A stretch of DNA of 64,000 nt, taken from Nitrosopumilaceae archaeon (GTDB lineage: Archaea > Thermoproteota > Nitrososphaeria > Nitrososphaerales > Nitrosopumilaceae). The DNA lies in the NCBI GenBank assembly GCA_965214835.1, contig CBDCCK010000002.1, positions 2,912,001-2,976,000 of the forward strand, read 5' to 3'. The position numbers and the translations under genes were made by a program. Shown here piece after piece: positions 1,796 to 49,368 of the stretch (the stretch's first letter is position 1; every line of letters starts with the position of its first letter). The notes under the pieces were generated by a model. The model was not told the DNA's origin and ran no database searches. It was given only the letters and a program-made list of their open reading frames with translations.

Positions 1796-1973
1796 CGTAA
1801 TGGGATGGCCCCTAGGCAGGATTGGAGTCACGGCCCTCTACCGAACATGTATGAAATTCGCATGTGACTGTGATCCTCGCGTCCAGATAATGACAGGTGC
1901 TGCCTGATAGACTGTTGCATAACTCCGACTAGAGCCCAGCCAATCCTTCTGGATCACTACCGGTGCTCGGTTC

Positions 1974-3296
1974 CTACATGGCAGTCACCGCCTCTGCGAT
2001 CCACTTGTTGTACAGCCATATCCTCAGCTTTACCTCCTGCACTATGTTGGACCACTTGAGGGCCTTTACGTCCTCGCCGAACATGCGCTTTATGGCCGAT
2101 ATCACGATCTCGACGATCCATCTACTGCCAAAGCCGACCGTGCTCTTCCAGTACCGCAGGTTCTCCTGCCTCTCCTCCTTTGACAGGTTGCCCACCGGCA
2201 CCTCGGGGCCGCCCCCGAGCTGCCATCGCACCAGCCGGCCCCACTTGTCGCCGGCGCCCTTGCCCCTTGCAGTACAGCTTGTCAAAAGCCGTATGAGGGG
2301 CATTACGTCGTACTTGTAGCACTCGGCTACGTTCTTTCTAGAGCCGTATGCGCCGTCTGCAAGCAGGATCTTGCCAGGTGTAATCTGGTCCTCGCCGGTG
2401 CCGAGCATATCTAGCGGCGATCTCCCGTCTGCAAGCATGTTGGGGATCTTGATTGTATCCACGATGTCAGGGCAGTCCTGCTCCTCTTCCTTCTTGATGC
2501 TCTTGATTGTATCCACGATGTCAGGGCAGTCCTGCTCCTCTTCCTTCTTGATGCTCTTGATTGTATCCACGATGTCAGGGCAGTCCTGCTCCTCTTCCTT
2601 CTTGATGCTCTTGATTGTATCCACGATGTCAGGGCAGTCCTGCTCCTCTTCCTTCTTGATGCTCTTGATTGTATCCACGATGTCAGGGCAGTCCTGCTCC
2701 TCTTCCTTCTTGATGCTCTTGATTGTATCCACGATGTCAGGGCAGTCCTGCTCCTCTTCCTTCTTGATGCTCCTGGCCGCCTCCTCAAGCAGCGCAGGCA
2801 GCTCCGTGCTGTCGCCGACTGCCTCGCTTGTGACGGACACTGCCAGCACCTGCTTGGTGTCTGCGTCTACCATCAGGTGCATCTTGACGAACCCGCGCCT
2901 TACCTTCCATTTCTTGCGTATCCACTCGCCCCGGTTGTGCTGCTTGAGGCCCGTGGCATCGGCTATCATGACCAGGTTGTTGGACTTGTCGCGCACGGTA
3001 ATTATGTGCTCTGCAATGTCGACGTCAAGCTTCTGCATCCTCCTGAATATCGTGGTATAGCACGGCGAGTCCATACCCCTTAGCATTTCCCCGAACATGC
3101 CTGACAGCTGCCTGTACGGTATCATCAATGCGGTCCTGAGGGCGGCCGCGGCCATTATCATGCCTTCCGCGTACAGGAACGGGGCGCCCTCCTTGTGGCG
3201 GTTGGCATCCTTGAGATCCTTCTCCCAGCCGGGGTCGTGCTTGACGACCAGGCCGGCTCCCCTCTCTACGTACTTTGCGTTATCCGTGTGTGTCAA
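1974..3296 (-). CDS. IS5/ISH1-group DDE transposase with internal 18-aa tandem repeat
   Basis: Motifs IADATGLK, GEWIRKKW...RRGFVKMHL, LADGAY, RWIVEIVISAIKRMFGE. Confidence 0.9.
   Translation of the reverse strand: MTHTDNAKYVERGAGLVVKHDPGWEKDLKDANRHKEGAPFLYAEGMIMAAAALRTALMIPYRQLSGMFGEMLRGMDSPCYTTIFRRMQKLDVDIAEHIITVRDKSNNLVMIADATGLKQHNRGEWIRKKWKVRRGFVKMHLMVDADTKQVLAVSVTSEAVGDSTELPALLEEAARSIKKEEEQDCPDIVDTIKSIKKEEEQDCPDIVDTIKSIKKEEEQDCPDIVDTIKSIKKEEEQDCPDIVDTIKSIKKEEEQDCPDIVDTIKSIKKEEEQDCPDIVDTIKIPNMLADGRSPLDMLGTGEDQITPGKILLADGAYGSRKNVAECYKYDVMPLIRLLTSCTARGKGAGDKWGRLVRWQLGGGPEVPVGNLSKEERQENLRYWKSTVGFGSRWIVEIVISAIKRMFGEDVKALKWSNIVQEVKLRIWLYNKWIAEAVTAM
2448..2772. repeat. Perfect 54-bp tandem repeat x6 (SIKKEEEQDCPDIVDTIK)
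   Basis: Unit GATTGTATCCACGATGTCAGGGCAGTCCTGCTCCTCTTCCTTCTTGATGCTCTT starts at 2451, 2505, 2559, 2613, 2667 and 2721, with no spacers. Confidence 0.97.
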
Positions 3297-3517
3297 CTGA
3301 TACCATACAAGGCATCCTCATGATCCATTACTTTTTCGGCCAAGTTTCGTTGATCATTATGGTGATTTTCGGTCAAGTTTCAGATTTTAGGCAGGGTTAT
3401 GCAACAGTCTACTGCCTGATCAACGCCTGTCATTCCGCGCTTAAATCATCAGACGCATGGCGATGGCAGTGTCCCTTGGGAGGTTCGTCACAATGGCCAG
3501 CGCCATCCGCAACAAGT

Positions 3518-16841: not shown

Positions 16842-17000
16842 TGAACACGCGATAAAAACACCCCCACCGTAGCTGGGGTGATGGATCAACCCCTTGCGCG
16901 GCAAGCGCTCAGCGCATTCCGGGCCGAATAGGGATATCCGATCTGCTGTGTTCCTGTGCTTGGTGCACCGATGGATGACCGCAGCTTCTGATCCGTCGAA
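16842..17000 (+). ncRNA. IS110 left end / bridge-RNA-like copy A (no recombinase)
   Basis: Homologous to the reverse complement of 39625-39781; both loops present with distinct target-loop sequences. Confidence 0.72.
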
Positions 17001-17002
17001 GC

Positions 17003-37238: not shown

Positions 37239-37642
37239 TACGCAACACTCGTAAAGATATCGACGACCTTTTTTGCAAGACTCTCAATGTTTACTGTAGG
37301 TTCTGCAGTAACCAAAAGCAGTATATCAGACACGGGGAATGGAAAGCTGATCAGGACCAGCTTGTCACGCCTTGCCGCAAGATAATTAATCGGTCCAAGG
37401 CTTTTGTCATAGTCTTTTCTTATGGATACCTTGGAGACAAACTCTACGAAGGACTGCAGTTTTGACTCGTCATCCTCCAACGGAGGAACCCCCTCACGCT
37501 GTCCTCCGGCAACTATTCTCCCACCGCCGTCAACTATTGCCGCAAATCTGACAGAGTCCTCGCTTTGGATCTGAAGGCACTTTTCTGCATACAGCTTGTA
37601 CTTTGAGTCATCATACATCCTGCCTGTTGTCCTCGTACTCAA
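37238..37642 (-). CDS. Roadblock/profilin-like thaumarchaeal protein (DUF6659-like)
   Basis: VRFAAIVD..GRIVAGG.REG...YDKSLGPINY...RDK. Confidence 0.75.
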   Translation of the reverse strand: MSTRTTGRMYDDSKYKLYAEKCLQIQSEDSVRFAAIVDGGGRIVAGGQREGVPPLEDDESKLQSFVEFVSKVSIRKDYDKSLGPINYLAARRDKLVLISFPFPVSDILLLVTAEPTVNIESLAKKVVDIFTSVA

Positions 37643-37798
37643 AATAAAAACCTAACATCCGAGGCATGCAGCCTTAACGCACATCTGAGACGGTGCAAGG
37701 AAAACGCCAGGTTTTGCACGGATGGAACGATCTCCGGCGGGAGCTCCAGTGCTCCAAGATACGTAGCCATCAGGGTGCAAAAAAGGGGTAAAAGGTGG

Positions 37799-38146
37799 TT
37801 ATGTGAAAGAACGAGTCTTGTTGACGATCTTTTTATGATCAAAGCTGGGACTGGTCGTAACATAGAGCAAGTGGCTTTTACCAGCTGGCAATGTGATACG
37901 CTTTACCTTATCATATTCAGCTATGGCATACTTGCACTTGCCCAGTTTACGAGCTAGTTGCTTTCGTTTTTTCCATTGGCTTGCTGCCATCTTCAAAGAA
38001 GCTTTGCTTTCTGCTGGTGAAAGCCTGTTTTGCGTGGTTTTTCTTCTTGCATGATATACTAGGTTGCCATCCATGTCACAGATAGAAACCACACGAACAC
38101 CGGTGCCTACTTTGAGTAGTTTTTCAGCTGCTGTTGCAACATCCAT
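37799..38146 (-). CDS. Roadblock/profilin-like thaumarchaeal protein (DUF6659-like paralog)
   Basis: VRVVSICDMDG...LGKCKYAIAEYDKVKRITLP; start at MDVATAAE. Confidence 0.75.
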   Translation of the reverse strand: MDVATAAEKLLKVGTGVRVVSICDMDGNLVYHARRKTTQNRLSPAESKASLKMAASQWKKRKQLARKLGKCKYAIAEYDKVKRITLPAGKSHLLYVTTSPSFDHKKIVNKTRSFT

Positions 38147-38514
38147 GCGTTTTTGAGCAAAACAATAGATGATAAAGTTTTCCGCGCTGTAACATAGATG
38201 AATAACCGTGCCTGAACGCGTAAAAACAGCCAGTTTTTCGTACCTAAAATCGGGGTTATGCATCCATGGTAAAACGCCCGCCAGTAACATGGCAACGTTC
38301 CTTTCTTCTTCTGATCCGTGCCTAGTCGGCCGGGCCGTGCTTTATAGCTAACGCTAGCAATACGCACGAGCCAGTCCTGTCGCACCTGCCAGGGTGCGGG
38401 CGGATCATTGGGTGGGTGGGTGGGGGATGGAAGGTGGTAATCCTATGCCGTTCCCGCCAGTTCTGTCACGGCAGGATGTATGTTTTGCTTGCGGCATGTC
38501 ATCGAGTGGTAATC

Positions 38515-39592
38515 CTATGCCGTTCCCGCCAGTTCTGTCACCCTCTTGATCTTCTTGTCGTACAGGGCAGCATTGCGCGATGAATACGCAGTCTTTGTCG
38601 TCAGCATGTGCCAGATTATCCTGAGCATCTTGTTTGCAACATGCGTTATCGCTATGACGTGGTTGTTGCCGTTCCTTTTGCGGACCCTCTCGTAGAACTC
38701 CCTCATCCTGTCGTCGTGCTGTACGGCGACGTTGGCTATCTGGATCATCAGCCAGTTGATCCTGCGGTTTGCATCCTTTTTCATGTGGCCGTGGTACTCG
38801 CGATCCCCCGACTGGTACACCCGGGGACACATGCCGGCCCAGGACACAAGCTGGTTCGGCGATGGAAACCTGGTTATGTCACCGATCTCTGCTATCAGCA
38901 GCATTGCTGCAAAGGTGTCTATTCCCGTCATGCTCAACAGCAGCTTGGCATCCTCGTTCGATCCTGCCTGTCTTCCTATGTCCTCCCCTGCTTGGTCTAT
39001 CTCCTCTGTGACGTGTACAATCCTCCTAGTGCAGCTTGCCAGTATCCTGTCATCGTTTGGCATGTTCAGCCTGGTATCGGAGATCTTCCGTATGGCCTTC
39101 TTGGAGTACATCGTGGATGCATCTATGGCTATATCGTACTTGTCAAGCCAAGCTGTGCAGCCCGTTTATGACTGCGGTCCTCTCCTGTACCATCCGTATC
39201 CTGTACCTCATCAGCTCCCTGACATCCCTCAGCTCTGCTGATGCCACGTAGCATCGTGGTATCATTCCGGCCCTGAGCGTGTCGGCTATCTTCCTTGCGT
39301 CTATCGGGTCGGTCTTTGCGCTGGTCTCTGATACTATCTTCATCTTGAGGGTGTTTGCAAGCAGTATGGGGATATGCTGATCCTCAAACGCCCTGAACGT
39401 CTTTAGCCACATGTTGCCCGTTGACTCGCATGCGGCCTGGCACTTTTTGTACTCTTTTTTCAGTCGTGCAGCAAGCTTTGATGCCTCCTTGTACGTGTTG
39501 TTATACGAGCCCTCCTCTAGCACGTGTCCCTTGGCGTCGATGACGCACACTGCGCATTTTCTCTTTCCAATGTCTATTCCTATGCTTCTCAA
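38515..39592 (-). pseudogene. IS110 DEDD recombinase with one +1 frameshift near 39149
   Basis: GIDIG, CESTG, KTDPIDA, IAEIGDITRF, WAGMCPRVYQSG (catalytic Ser). CTG CAC AGC TTG G CTT GAC AAG shows one extra base. Confidence 0.9.
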
Positions 39593-39624
39593 TCCTTTTC
39601 TTTCACCTCCTTTTGGATATGGTT

Positions 39625-39779
39625 TGACAGATCAGAAGCTGCATTCATCCATCAGTGCGCGTAGCACAGGAACACAGCAGCTCGGATATCCCCATTCAAC
39701 AGGTAGTGCGCGAAGCACATGCATAACGAGGGGTTGATCCATCACCCTGGCTACGGCGGGGGCGTTTTTATCATGTGTT
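39625..39779 (-). ncRNA. Bridge-RNA-like ncRNA of IS110 copy B
   Basis: Two internal loops, each capped by a GTGC..GCAC hairpin; four loop segments match both target flanks and both element ends. Confidence 0.82.
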
Positions 39780-40064
39780 CAACAGGCTACGCGCTGTAAA
39801 AACCTGCAAAAATCTCACCATATTTACGATCTTTTTACTCATCCGTAGATCCATTACGGGGACTTGATCGCCAAATGCAGGGAAAATGACCAAGGCGGTA
39901 CGTGGTGGGCCGATTTGCCCGAGGAGACGCAGGAAGGCATGGAGTGTGAATAGTCCAGCCTCAATAGTTCTGATTGACCCAGTAGCCAGACTCGGCCCGG
40001 ATCGGGGGCTTGCTCGTACTCTTACAGATGCCCTGATGATGCGGGCAGGCATGATGCGTAGTAT

Positions 40065-41111
40065 CTAGCCGAGATAATCGCTCATCTGGCAGATTTTGAT
40101 CTCGCCCCTGCGCAACATGACGCGTATGGACTTTTGCATCTCGCCGACGGTCTGATACAGGCGGCTTGCAGTCGCCTTTTTGACCCCGCGCCACTGCCCC
40201 TCTATCGGGCTCAGCTCCGGCGTGTACGGCGGCAGGAACTTTAGCACCACATCACCATTCCATTCTGCCAGCTGCTCCCCGACCAGTGCGGCCCTGTGAT
40301 ACGATGCGTTGTCGACAAACAGCAGCACCTTGCCGTACTTGCGACGCAGCACCTTGAGAAACCTGATGGACGTGTGCTTGGCCGTTTTGTAAAAGCGGCA
40401 GTCAAGTCCGTTTGCCGACAGGGCACCGATCGAATAGAACCTCTCCTTTGACAGGTTGGACGGCGCAAAGACCGGGCCTTCCCACGGGATACCAGCTGTT
40501 CTTGACGTTCCACCCAAGGATGAACGAGGCCTCGTCCCCTATCATTGCCGTGTGCTCCCTCTTTGAATGGTACCTTACGTGCCACCTAGCTTTTTTTTGA
40601 ACTCTTCTTTCTCGGATTCTGAGGCTGGTTTTGGGTGCTTTGGGCGGGGGGCTTTCTGCATGAAAAGCCCAGGCATGTGCAGTATCTTGCATGCGCTGGA
40701 GACGGCATAGTCTGCCTTGTATTTCTTTTTGATGTGTACCGCAAGCAGCGGTGCGGTCCACACCTCCGACTCGAATCCGCAGCTGCGCGGGCCCGCAACC
40801 AGGTCGGCGCGCACCTGCTTGAGATTCCCTGCGTCCGGCCACATCTTGGTGCCGGGCCTCTTGATGTCGTACCTGCCCTGTATGCCAAGCTGCATGGCCC
40901 ATATCGGCCAGTCACGTATCGTAGAGTACCCCCGGCCGAGCTGCCTGGCTATCTGGCGTATCGAGTCGCCTTTTTTGCGACGCATGTAGGCCATCAGCCT
41001 GGCTGCGGCCTTGGAGTCGGTCTCGTTTTTGTACCTCTCAAAGAGGGACGGGGTCGAGACGTTGGGAAGAAACTTGCCCCCTGTTGGGATCATCGAGTAG
41101 TCTGGTTTCAT
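40065..41111 (-). pseudogene. IS630-family transposase (A8G slippery site at ~40590-40598 plus an extra frameshift)
   Basis: HTH, EFKKK / IGDEASF in the -1 frame, VDNASYH, LPPYTPELSPIE. Confidence 0.85.
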
Positions 41112-43492: not shown

Positions 43493-43994
43493 GGAGTTGT
43501 TGTGTGATTCGATTTATCCTGTATAATTTGCTCATTTTCCAAGTCATTACATCTAGATCACGTCCAATGTGGGGATGGCGTGTGGAAATTTCAAGCATTT
43601 TGGCGAATTACGCAGCATCTATGTTAAAAACACCCGTCGTAGAAACGACGATGTTCCTAGTTTCTTCTGATCCACGCCTACTTGATCGTGGCCCACTTTA
43701 GCTGACGCTGGTTGCACGATGCAGTCGCGCTTGCCTTCTCCCGGTGCGGTCATGTCATATCCTCCCAGATCATTGGGTGGGTGGTGGGGCAGGAGGTGAG
43801 TCACCGCAGGCGGTTTCTTTCCTCCTGGTCTTGACGGATCAGAAGCTGCAGTCATCTATCAGTGCGCGAAGCACAGGAACACAGCAGCTCGGATATCCCC
43901 ATTCAACCTCGAGTGCGCTGAGCACATGTCGCGTAAGGGGTTGATCCATCACCCTGACTACGGCGGTGGTGTTTTTATCACGTGCTCAACCCCC
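43493..43994. mobile_element. Degenerate GGGGTTG-TIR MITE split by mini-IS110 copy C
   Basis: Flanking ATGTTATG (43485-43492, 43995-44002). Reconstituted end TTTTGGCGAATTACGCAGCAACCCC resembles TTCTGGCGAATTAGGCGACAACCCC of the 7679 MITE. Confidence 0.7.
43616..43988 (-). mobile_element. Non-autonomous mini-IS110 (copy C): both ends plus bridge-like RNA, no recombinase
   Basis: 43616-43785 is homologous to 38261-38420 and 43830-43988 to 39625-39781; CA core at both junctions. Confidence 0.85.
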
Positions 43995-44635: not shown

Positions 44636-44751
44636 AGCTTGGATGCGCGCCGGGGCGTGAAAAAATGAAATCGTCGTACATTGTCGTGCATAGCGTCCGC
44701 TGGGTCGTGATTTAAAATGAATCATCGCGCATAGTCTCTATGTAAATGGCT

Positions 44752-47748
<2,997 letters not shown>

Positions 47749-47863
47749 AAATTCAGCCACATATTACACGACTATGCACGACGATCATCGGGTGCAGTCC
47801 AGGGAGGACTGCCCCCTACATCCTTCATACATCACTTTCATGATGCATTGCATCTGATGGTTT

Positions 47864-47896
47864 TTTGTGAAGACTTGTGCACCCGGCACAATTTCT

Positions 47897-47900
<4 letters not shown>
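47864..47900 (-). other. 3' arm of the pre-16S processing stem (pairs with ~49404-49438)
   Basis: GTGAAGAC..GTGCA.CCG...CAATT is complementary to AATTG...CGGATGCAC...GTCTTCAC with bulges. Confidence 0.65.

Positions 47901-49368
<1,468 letters not shown>

Follow-up and report, generated by a model that had tools for sequence, protein, structure and literature searches.

The sequence at positions 38263-39779 (minus strand) is very probably an archaeal insertion sequence (IS) of the IS110 family, near the IS1111 type, that moves by serine/DEDD recombination guided by a bridge RNA, the RNA being predicted to lie in the non-coding end upstream of its recombinase gene. Coordinates are positions in the window, the whole 64,000-nt stretch of DNA that was analysed (G000:C2:2912001-2976000, from a genome of 3.22 Mb). 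Two internal loops of the predicted RNA match the DNA on either side of the insertion and the two ends of the element, respectively. These matches exceed chance, because the stems of the RNA, its target guides and the flanking DNA, and its donor guides and the element ends all covary among related copies. That the host is archaeal is indicated by the rRNA genes of the window, which best fit archaeal Rfam models (small subunit (SSU), 1452.6 bits; large subunit (LSU), 2679.8 bits), in agreement with the assignment made in an earlier reading of the letters alone (hereafter the sequence-only reading). All strings and coordinates reported in that reading are present in the sequence as it gave them. 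The mechanism is a known one, and the element gives a well-supported instance of it from nature, in a lineage that has received little study.

The element, its ends and its predicted guides

Comparison of the element with its own genome by BLAST identified three subfamilies: A, with eight near-identical full copies (98-100%); B, with three copies at 88-91%, one degenerate; and E, with three copies at about 65%. Several truncated pieces were found as well, together with a set of short copies that keep the two ends only. The boundaries of the element were set by aligning the eight near-identical copies with their flanks, and the host of the window copy is a miniature inverted-repeat transposable element (MITE). 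The features of the insertion are as follows.

38263-39779, minus strand: IS110-family element, 1517 bp excluding the core dinucleotides
39755-39779, minus strand: left end, with AACACATGA adjoining the core, followed by the subterminal inverted repeat TAAAAACGCCCCCGCC (sense)
38263-38282, minus strand: right end, with CCATGGA adjoining the core, followed by the subterminal inverted repeat GGCGGGCGTTTTA (sense)
38183-38190: left target-site duplication of the host MITE, 8 bp, CGCGCTGT
38191-38262: body of the host MITE and inner part of its right terminal inverted repeat, ending in GGTTATG and the core CA (38261-38262)
39780-39789: core CA (39780-39781) and the outermost 8 bp of the host MITE terminal inverted repeat (ACAGGCTA), read in the sequence
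39790-39797: right target-site duplication of the host MITE, 8 bp, CGCGCTGT, identical to the left copy

In the aligned copies the left end begins after a TG (CCTGT-TG-AACACATG) and the right end stops before a TG (CCATGGA-TG-CATAAC), so that one TG on the sense strand, or CA on the forward strand of the window, is found at either end, with no further duplication. When the window flanks are joined they read TAGCCTGTTGCATAACCCCGATTTTAGG, which is identical to the uninterrupted MITE tip at C2:3110706, where the TG is single. Insertion is thus sequence-specific and without duplication beyond a short core, as is typical for the IS110 family. The host MITE has kept its 8-bp duplication on both sides, as the sequence-only reading had noted, and minus-strand bases 38262-38184 of this MITE recur elsewhere in the genome at 78-95% identity.

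The core is separated from the subterminal repeats by 9 nt on the left and 7 nt on the right. These repeats, in which the 38263-38282 side pairs with 39755-39770, span roughly 20-35 aligned positions in four lineages and covary among them in a gapped alignment; subfamily E has a perfect run of 18 bp. An ungapped repeat search missed the repeat of the window copy, which contains indels, and the gapped alignment recovered it. Contigs from four DNA runs over 37600-40400 break at the repeat boundaries, and none spans an empty site or a circle junction. One X1 contig skips 38427-38506, which is the form that the other copies of the element have.

The consensus fold of the 5' non-coding end of the element, drawn from 22 different sequences (11 of them in this genome, the other 11 in five relatives), consists of two adjacent internal-loop modules built to one plan: a stem at the base, then a large internal loop, then a hairpin of 4 bp. 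Over a stretch of 27 nt they are 78% alike.

39684-39740, minus strand: target-binding module; stems GGAU/AUCC and CCCC/GGGG; 5' strand CGUUAUGCA (39728-39720); hairpin GUGC-UUCGC-GCAC; 3' strand CCUGUUG (39703-39697)
39635-39683, minus strand: donor-binding module; basal stem GAGCUGC/GCAGCUUC; 5' strand UGUGUUC (39676-39670); hairpin GUGC-UACGC-GCAC; 3' strand AUGGAUG (39652-39646)

Helices 1-3 of the consensus belong to the target module and helices 4 and 5 to the donor module. Over the 23 stem pairs, 96.8% of 506 cells are paired, versus 28.9-63.6% when the partners are slid by 1-3 columns. Compensatory changes occur in 6 of the 23 pairs, including all four pairs of helix 5, and none of 500 shuffles matches the observed pairing, the number of compensatory pairs or the covariation score. 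Seven G-U cells are compatible with the sense strand alone. Folding the relatives and building a covariance model, a check proposed in the sequence-only reading, has thus been carried out on 22 relatives and shows that the stems covary. An outer stem (GAUGGAUCA/UGAUCUGUC) suggested by the fold of the single sequence was dropped in favor of the GGAU/AUCC stem of the consensus. Near the right end lies a 12-nt stretch (38308-38319, sense ACGGAUCAGAAG) with 92% complementarity to the donor-module tail (39627-39638, CUUCUGAUCUGU), and the motif GGATCAGAAG recurs close to the right ends in all lineages seen.

Both strands of the target loop can be read against the flanks of the window copy. The 5' strand, CGTTATGCA in DNA letters (39728-39720), agrees with GGTTATGCA (38254-38262) at 8/9 positions, which makes the RNA strand CGUUAUGCA complementary, at 8/9, to the sense-strand TG-CATAAC(C) to the right of the element. 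The 3' strand CCTGTTG (39703-39697) is the reverse complement of CAACAGG at 39780-39786 (7/7) and equals the sense-strand CCTGT-TG on the left. The donor module fits the joined ends of the element, ATGGA-TG-AACACA, in the same manner as the target module fits the flanks: TGTGTTC at 39774-39780 equals the donor-loop strand 39676-39670 (7/7), UGUGUUC being complementary to the sense G-AACACA of the left end, and CATCCAT at 38261-38267 is the reverse complement of the donor strand ATGGATG (39652-39646; 7/7), AUGGAUG being equal to the ATGGA-TG of the right end.

Target guides and flanks change together. All eight subfamily A copies have the 5' flank TAG-N-(C/T)TGT-TG and the 3' flank CATAAC, guide CGTAGTTG goes with flank CAGTAGTTG, and guide GACTTCTG goes with flank TACTTCTG. 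In lineage B, guide CGUAGUUG accompanies flank CAGTAGT-TG on one side and guide UCAUUUUCA accompanies TG-AAAATG on the other; in lineage E, the corresponding pairs are GACUUCUG with TACTTC-TG and GUCUUCCCA with TG-GGAAGAC, the latter being exact at four further right ends. In other genomes, guide UUCAUUUG is found with flank TTCATTTG (G010), and guides GUCGUG and UUUGUG with flanks GTCGTG and TTTGTG, respectively (G004).

For permutation tests of this relationship, a covariance model was built from the 22-sequence alignment, and its 42 matches from 42 loci were aligned. The 3' strand of the target loop agrees with the 5' flank (the six bases before the core) at a mean of 4.13/6 positions, as compared to 1.75 +/- 0.21 after permutation (0/20000 as high, n = 32 distinct pairs). 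This test left out 8 of the 42 rows (five that do not start with TG or are truncated and three without an anchor) and two duplicates; the G010 copies L032 and L054 were excluded, as their left end may sit 10 nt further in. For the 5' strand and the 3' flank (the seven bases after the core) the mean is 3.82/7 versus 2.00 +/- 0.34 (0/20000 as high), with 17 distinct pairs from the 42 rows, four rows having no recognisable right-end motif and the others being duplicates or lacking a subterminal repeat that scores at least 20. TG is both the core and the last two bases of the guide in 32/32 elements of the 5'-flank test. Many different guides contribute to these results. The comparison of guides and flanks over genomic copies, likewise proposed beforehand, therefore finds that both flanks covary with the target loop. 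Of 151 sampled genomes from the taxonomic family, 28, spread over 11 of 27 genera, contain a match to the covariance model; this count takes in the unpublished genome G094, which enters no other result.

Donor guides follow the element ends in the same way. Where the right end varies (ATGGA, ATAGG or ATAGA), its guide has the corresponding bases in 9 of 10 lineages, and changes in the left end are mirrored by the guide (AAGACA with UGUCU; TGAAAGCC with GGCUUUCA). Between subfamilies A and B, donor loops and ends are identical. The covariation of stems, of guides with flanks and of guides with ends bears out the two-loop architecture put forward in the sequence-only reading.

The recombinase gene and its shared frameshift

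The recombinase is encoded in two open reading frames (ORFs) that are separated by a frameshift.

39143-39592, minus strand: recombinase ORF1, 149 aa, DEDD RuvC-like domain, PF01548 (DEDD_Tnp_IS110), E 1.1e-29
38515-39111, minus strand: recombinase ORF2, 198 aa, Transposase_20 domain, PF02371, E 2.1e-26
39142-39157, minus strand: frameshift site, CACAGCTTGGCTTGAC as against CACAGCCTGCTTGAC in the single intact copy, with the extra base at about 39147-39152

An unbroken 378-aa paralogue matches PF01548 (E 9.1e-30) and the model NF033542, "IS110 family RNA-guided transposase" (234 bits, cutoff 140). Together with PF02371, these matches confirm the recombinase as a member of the IS110 family. It has weak similarity to the IS621 and ISCro4 chains, and its PRVYQSGD aligns with PRRYESGS of the ISCro4 chain, suggesting by alignment a catalytic role for the serine.

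ORF1 ends at a TGA stop (39145-39143, UGA-C), and the AUG that starts ORF2 lies 32 nt further on. The frameshift falls at the end of the PF01548 domain and thus at the boundary between the two domains. The recombinase had been described in the sequence-only reading as intact except for one extra base. The extra base is indeed present, but it is not a private defect of the window copy: 10 of 11 aligned copies have it, comprising all eight of subfamily A and two of the three of subfamily B, which are 9-12% diverged. An A copy and a frameshifted B copy, compared over 353 codons, differ by 41.7 synonymous and 44.3 non-synonymous changes, and the ratios of non-synonymous to synonymous change (dN/dS) of the two gene halves are 0.25 and 0.29 (binomial p = 7e-8 versus a neutral share of 0.776). 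Because 10/11 copies share the base and both halves have stayed under purifying selection, the extra base is probably not a simple defect. The parsimonious reading is that the shift is ancestral to A and B, and this implies that the gene was under selection while shifted. It is most likely that the shared frameshift is not lethal and that the gene tolerates it or gets round it, whether through a +1 shift at GCU-UGA-C or through assembly of two polypeptides. When the site was sought in the same-genus genome G002, only fragments were found, one of which breaks exactly at the site.

It is possible, though doubtful, that the window copy and its seven sisters are instead dead, non-autonomous elements in which the frameshift kills the recombinase, and that the intact gene of the wider group at C2:513383-514516 supplies the enzyme in trans, each copy providing its own bridge RNA and ends. 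An unbroken ORF is present in 1 of 14 full-length copies examined, and the identity of donor loops and ends between A and B means that one enzyme-RNA system could serve both. Furthermore, derivatives of 369-375 bp that lack the recombinase exist, at least two of them in sites that fit their own guides, indicating that trans-mobilisation does occur in this genome. Purifying selection on both ORF halves of two frameshifted lineages is nevertheless unexpected under pure trans-mobilisation, and six of the eight A copies have gained no further stops or shifts beyond the shared one.

The window copy has a further peculiarity at the 3' end of the recombinase gene, where a 36-nt direct repeat (38434-38469 and 38506-38541) surrounds a 36-nt insert (38470-38505). 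Within the element, this 72-bp insert-plus-duplication is private to the window copy, the other copies being without it. The insert recurs with 100% identity at six other loci and is an internal piece of another multi-copy IS. The genome has a CRISPR array (C2:2482178-2492954) of 148 repeats of 36 nt with spacers that are mostly 36-37 nt long (99/147). Because its geometry equals that of the array, the structure at 38434-38541 has the look of a spacer that the CRISPR adaptation machinery integrated off target; the duplicated 36-nt stretch has no resemblance to the CRISPR repeat.

Targets, sister lineages and competing explanations

The guide of the window copy spells the tip shared by an IS5-family element and a MITE of about 90 bp. 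A full-length, unoccupied copy of the IS lies in the window, as do other relatives of the IS110-family element.

1908-3411, minus strand: targeted IS5-family element, full-length and unoccupied, 1504 bp; terminal inverted repeat TAGACTGTTGCATAAC; 8-bp duplication CTGCCTGA
43618-43986, minus strand: recombinase-less derivative, 369 bp, consisting of left end, bridge RNA and right end; target loop UUACGCGACA/CGAGGUUG
16844-17002, plus strand: bridge-RNA-bearing left-end fragment with yet another target loop and a MITE terminus directly after it; 148.6 bits
3518-3632, minus strand: truncated fragment of left end and target loop, about 115 nt, abutting a TAGTTTGTTG tip

The terminal inverted repeat of the 1504-bp IS reads GGGTTATGCAACAG(G/T)CTA, its right copy being GGGTTATGCAACAGTCTA at 3394-3411. 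Its 440-aa protein matches PF01609, PF13737 and the IS5-family model NF033579 (166.4 bits, cutoff 140). All eight subfamily A copies sit at the same point, 10 bp inside the tip, four in the MITE and four in either end of the IS. The tip of the IS5-family terminal inverted repeat is thus confirmed as the target, since no copy with this guide sits in an unrelated site. With up to two mismatches allowed, the genome has 119 occurrences of the 13-mer CCTGTTGCATAAC, and the four that are both exact and unoccupied are all transposon tips. In the transposase gene of the IS (1974-3296), a 54-nt unit, 18 residues in the protein (KKEEEQDCPDIVDTIKSI), occurs six times in tandem at mid-protein (2411-2788), and a periodic k-mer signal was likewise obtained from another copy of this IS (C2:190385-190475). 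At its left tip (38191-38206), the host MITE reads AACATAGA-TG-AATAAC in place of the usual TAGCCTGT-TG-CATAAC. AACATAGA-TG is the right end and core of sister IS110 lineages (E and the short elements); it stands here directly against the MITE target duplication, once in the genome, and may be a recombination scar.

Sister lineages aim at other mobile elements. The tip spelled by the B guide is that of an IS of about 1.36 kb, whose protein matches PF01609 and also, with a score below cutoff, the ISH3 model. The E guide corresponds to the tip of a MITE about 100 bp long (172 near-matches), and the short element at 43618-43986 has a guide that spells the tip of a MITE about 130 bp long (102 near-matches). 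Two mismatches were permitted in these counts, and chance matches are among those counted. In each of the four guide lineages, each with a different mobile element as its target, the crossover lies 5-10 bp inside the tip. The target loop of the element at 43618-43986 differs from that of the window copy and fits its own flanks, the tip of a different MITE, at 5/7 positions of the 3' flank and 4/6 of the 5' flank (L027). This element lies about 0.8 kb past the LSU end of the archaeal LSU and SSU rRNA genes at 44751-49368 (minus strand). Other recombinase-less derivatives of about 370 bp (369-375 bp), which likewise keep left end, bridge RNA and right end, are found at C2:10109, 639990, 655668, 2139578 and 3124521. 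The target loops of the derivatives differ among themselves, and at least two derivatives sit in sites that fit their own loop.

In the mechanism proposed here, the bridge RNA would be transcribed from the left end, where the archaeal TATA box may be represented by a conserved A/T-rich sequence resembling ATAAAAAC, 10-17 nt in from the end. The RNA would bind the recombinase and bridge the junction of the excised circle to the target, and strand exchange at the TG would insert the element 10 bp inside the terminal inverted repeat of the IS5-family element or the MITE of about 90 bp. Transposon tips would serve as targets because no other sequences of the genome are as numerous, as conserved and as harmless, and because the tips are themselves copied. 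The splitting of the host repeat, which probably cripples that end, is most likely a side effect. The sequence-only reading had the element programmed to parasitise or inactivate IS5 ends. The targeting of these ends is upheld, but inactivation as a purpose goes beyond it, as an abundant, conserved and harmless landing site explains the same data.

Several observations weigh against bridge-RNA guidance as set out here. The transcription of the RNA, its ends and its binding to protein are predictions, and an Rfam search of 38100-39900 at E values up to 10 returned chance-level matches only and no bridge-RNA family. The fold of the single sequence is no better than that of shuffles (z = -1.13) and is uninformative, which is why the consensus of 22 relatives was used. 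The permutation figures overstate independence, because the sequences are related by descent. In three of the 17 distinct pairs, 0/7 positions of the 3' flank match; at C2:1835892, a copy with guide AUUUGUUG has GCCTGTTG as its flank; and at C2:1519220, 639990 and 3124521 the 5' flank is the tip of one transposon family and the 3' flank that of another. Such mixed flanks are what recombination between copies or half-matched events would leave, and they suggest that the elements mediated rearrangements between insertion sites. Lastly, every subfamily A copy is frameshifted, and since the genome has only one intact gene of the wider group, the window copy may depend on C2:513383-514516.

A broader scenario, which at present seems unlikely, is that of a guild of bridge-RNA elements in this archaeal family, in which each lineage re-aims its target loop to disable the tip of a rival transposon, and cassettes of about 370 bp provide guides for a shared enzyme made from the conserved frameshifted gene, by a programmed +1 shift at GCU-UGA-C or as two separately translated domains that assemble in trans. 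The notion that the guides were selected as an anti-transposon device, disabling rivals by splitting their terminal inverted repeats, is quite improbable. It accords with the finding that each of the four guide lineages has its own element to aim at (IS5-family IS and MITE, ISH3-like IS, MITE of about 130 bp, MITE of about 100 bp), at a point 5-10 bp in from the tip, and that insertion cuts the outer tip off from the remainder of the repeat. Abundance alone, however, accounts for the choice, as tips are the only sequence common to an IS and its MITEs, with 54-172 near-matches per target word. Most target sites are still unoccupied, and bacterial relatives likewise prefer repeats (REP elements, attC sites, Tn21 repeats), with no benefit shown in those parts of the literature that were drawn upon. 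That the protein picks the site without any guide RNA, the matches between non-coding end and flanks being by-products such as captured target sequence, is extremely improbable: the long subterminal inverted repeats could bind protein, but both strands of both loops match in the register known from characterised relatives, the changes in guides go with changes in flanks over more than 30 lineages whose recombinase and stems are conserved, and the G-U pairs point to an RNA of the sense strand.

Relation to known bridge-RNA systems

Insertion into the ends of other transposons has a parallel in bacteria. IS4321/IS5075 are IS110-family elements that reportedly go into a constant position within the terminal inverted repeats that Tn21-family transposons on plasmids carry. 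The element described here shares the fixed point of insertion in another transposon's terminal inverted repeats. It differs in being archaeal, in having IS5-family elements and MITEs as hosts, and in that several sister lineages occur within one genome, each with its own target element. To our knowledge, bridge and seek RNAs were described in 2024 and in bacterial elements only. Full-text literature searches found no description of an archaeal bridge RNA, though the supplements of PMC11208160 and PMC11187229 may list archaeal elements or predicted RNAs.

IS621 of E. coli (IS110 group), as described in the portions of its reports used here (PMC11208160, PMC11208158), has a DEDD and serine recombinase, the archaeal protein having the DEDD domain and a candidate catalytic serine, and it likewise has an RNA in the left end upstream of the gene and a target loop that precedes the donor loop. 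There, too, a loop overlaps the 2-nt core and forms pairs with either DNA strand, and one core copy is found per end. By comparison with the same portions (PMC11208160, PMC11208158), the archaeal element departs from IS621 in that the 5' side of its guide pairs with the sense strand of the right half-site, so that the order is reversed, in its core, which is TG on the sense strand rather than CT, and in its long subterminal inverted repeats, as opposed to 2-3 bp in the IS110 group. Protein similarity to IS621 (E 9e-9) covers the C-terminal domain only. The element thus has neither the strand order nor the absent or very short subterminal repeats of the IS110 group proper (IS621-like), and IS621, which the sequence-only reading had named as the example of a bispecific bridge RNA, is not its nearest model; in guide strand order and subterminal repeats the element is IS1111-like.

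Indeed, IS1111-type elements with a seekRNA (ISEc11, ISKpn4, ISPa11) have subterminal inverted repeats, a segment complementary to the top strand ahead of the match to the bottom strand, and highly specific targets, as set out in the part of PMC11187229 drawn upon. The archaeal element has the subterminal inverted repeats of about 11-13 bp or more and the guide strand order of this group. It differs in the position of the non-coding region, which in the IS1111 type usually lies downstream of the gene, with few exceptions such as ISMtsp17 in the same part of that source (PMC11187229), whereas here it lies upstream (RNA at 39740-39635, ORF from 39592). It also differs in its terminal extensions, which are 9 and 7 nt here versus 7 and 3 bp (left and right) there (PMC11187229, same part). 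By strand order and subterminal repeats, the lineage would therefore be placed near the IS1111 type. Among named elements of the plasmid collection, ISHvo10/ISHvo9 of Haloferax volcanii pHV4 (NC_013966.1) is the closest relative, with 30% identity over 88% of the protein. Like the relatives found here, ISHvo10 has a subterminal inverted repeat (14 bp) and an end of similar form, CCATAGG-TG. Unlike them, it has long non-coding regions on both sides of its gene (about 234 and 235 nt), and it is mentioned in the portion of PMC11187229 used here as a more diverged IS with non-coding regions on both sides. A count of 662 archaeal IS110 recombinase homologues is given in a further report (10.1101/2024.06.21.599552).

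The known mechanism is unchanged by these results. What this genome and its relatives offer is a natural re-programming series, in which stems and donor loop are constant and many target loops can each be read against their own flanks. The series indicates which positions matter, namely the core with the 5 nt next to it on one side, and the core with 7 nt on the other, and it combines the architecture of an upstream RNA with the strand order of the IS1111 type. It further illustrates the life of such elements inside other transposons and the natural origin of guide-only derivatives. The conserved frameshift at the domain boundary, if it is functional, would provide new information on how a two-domain recombinase can be expressed or assembled.

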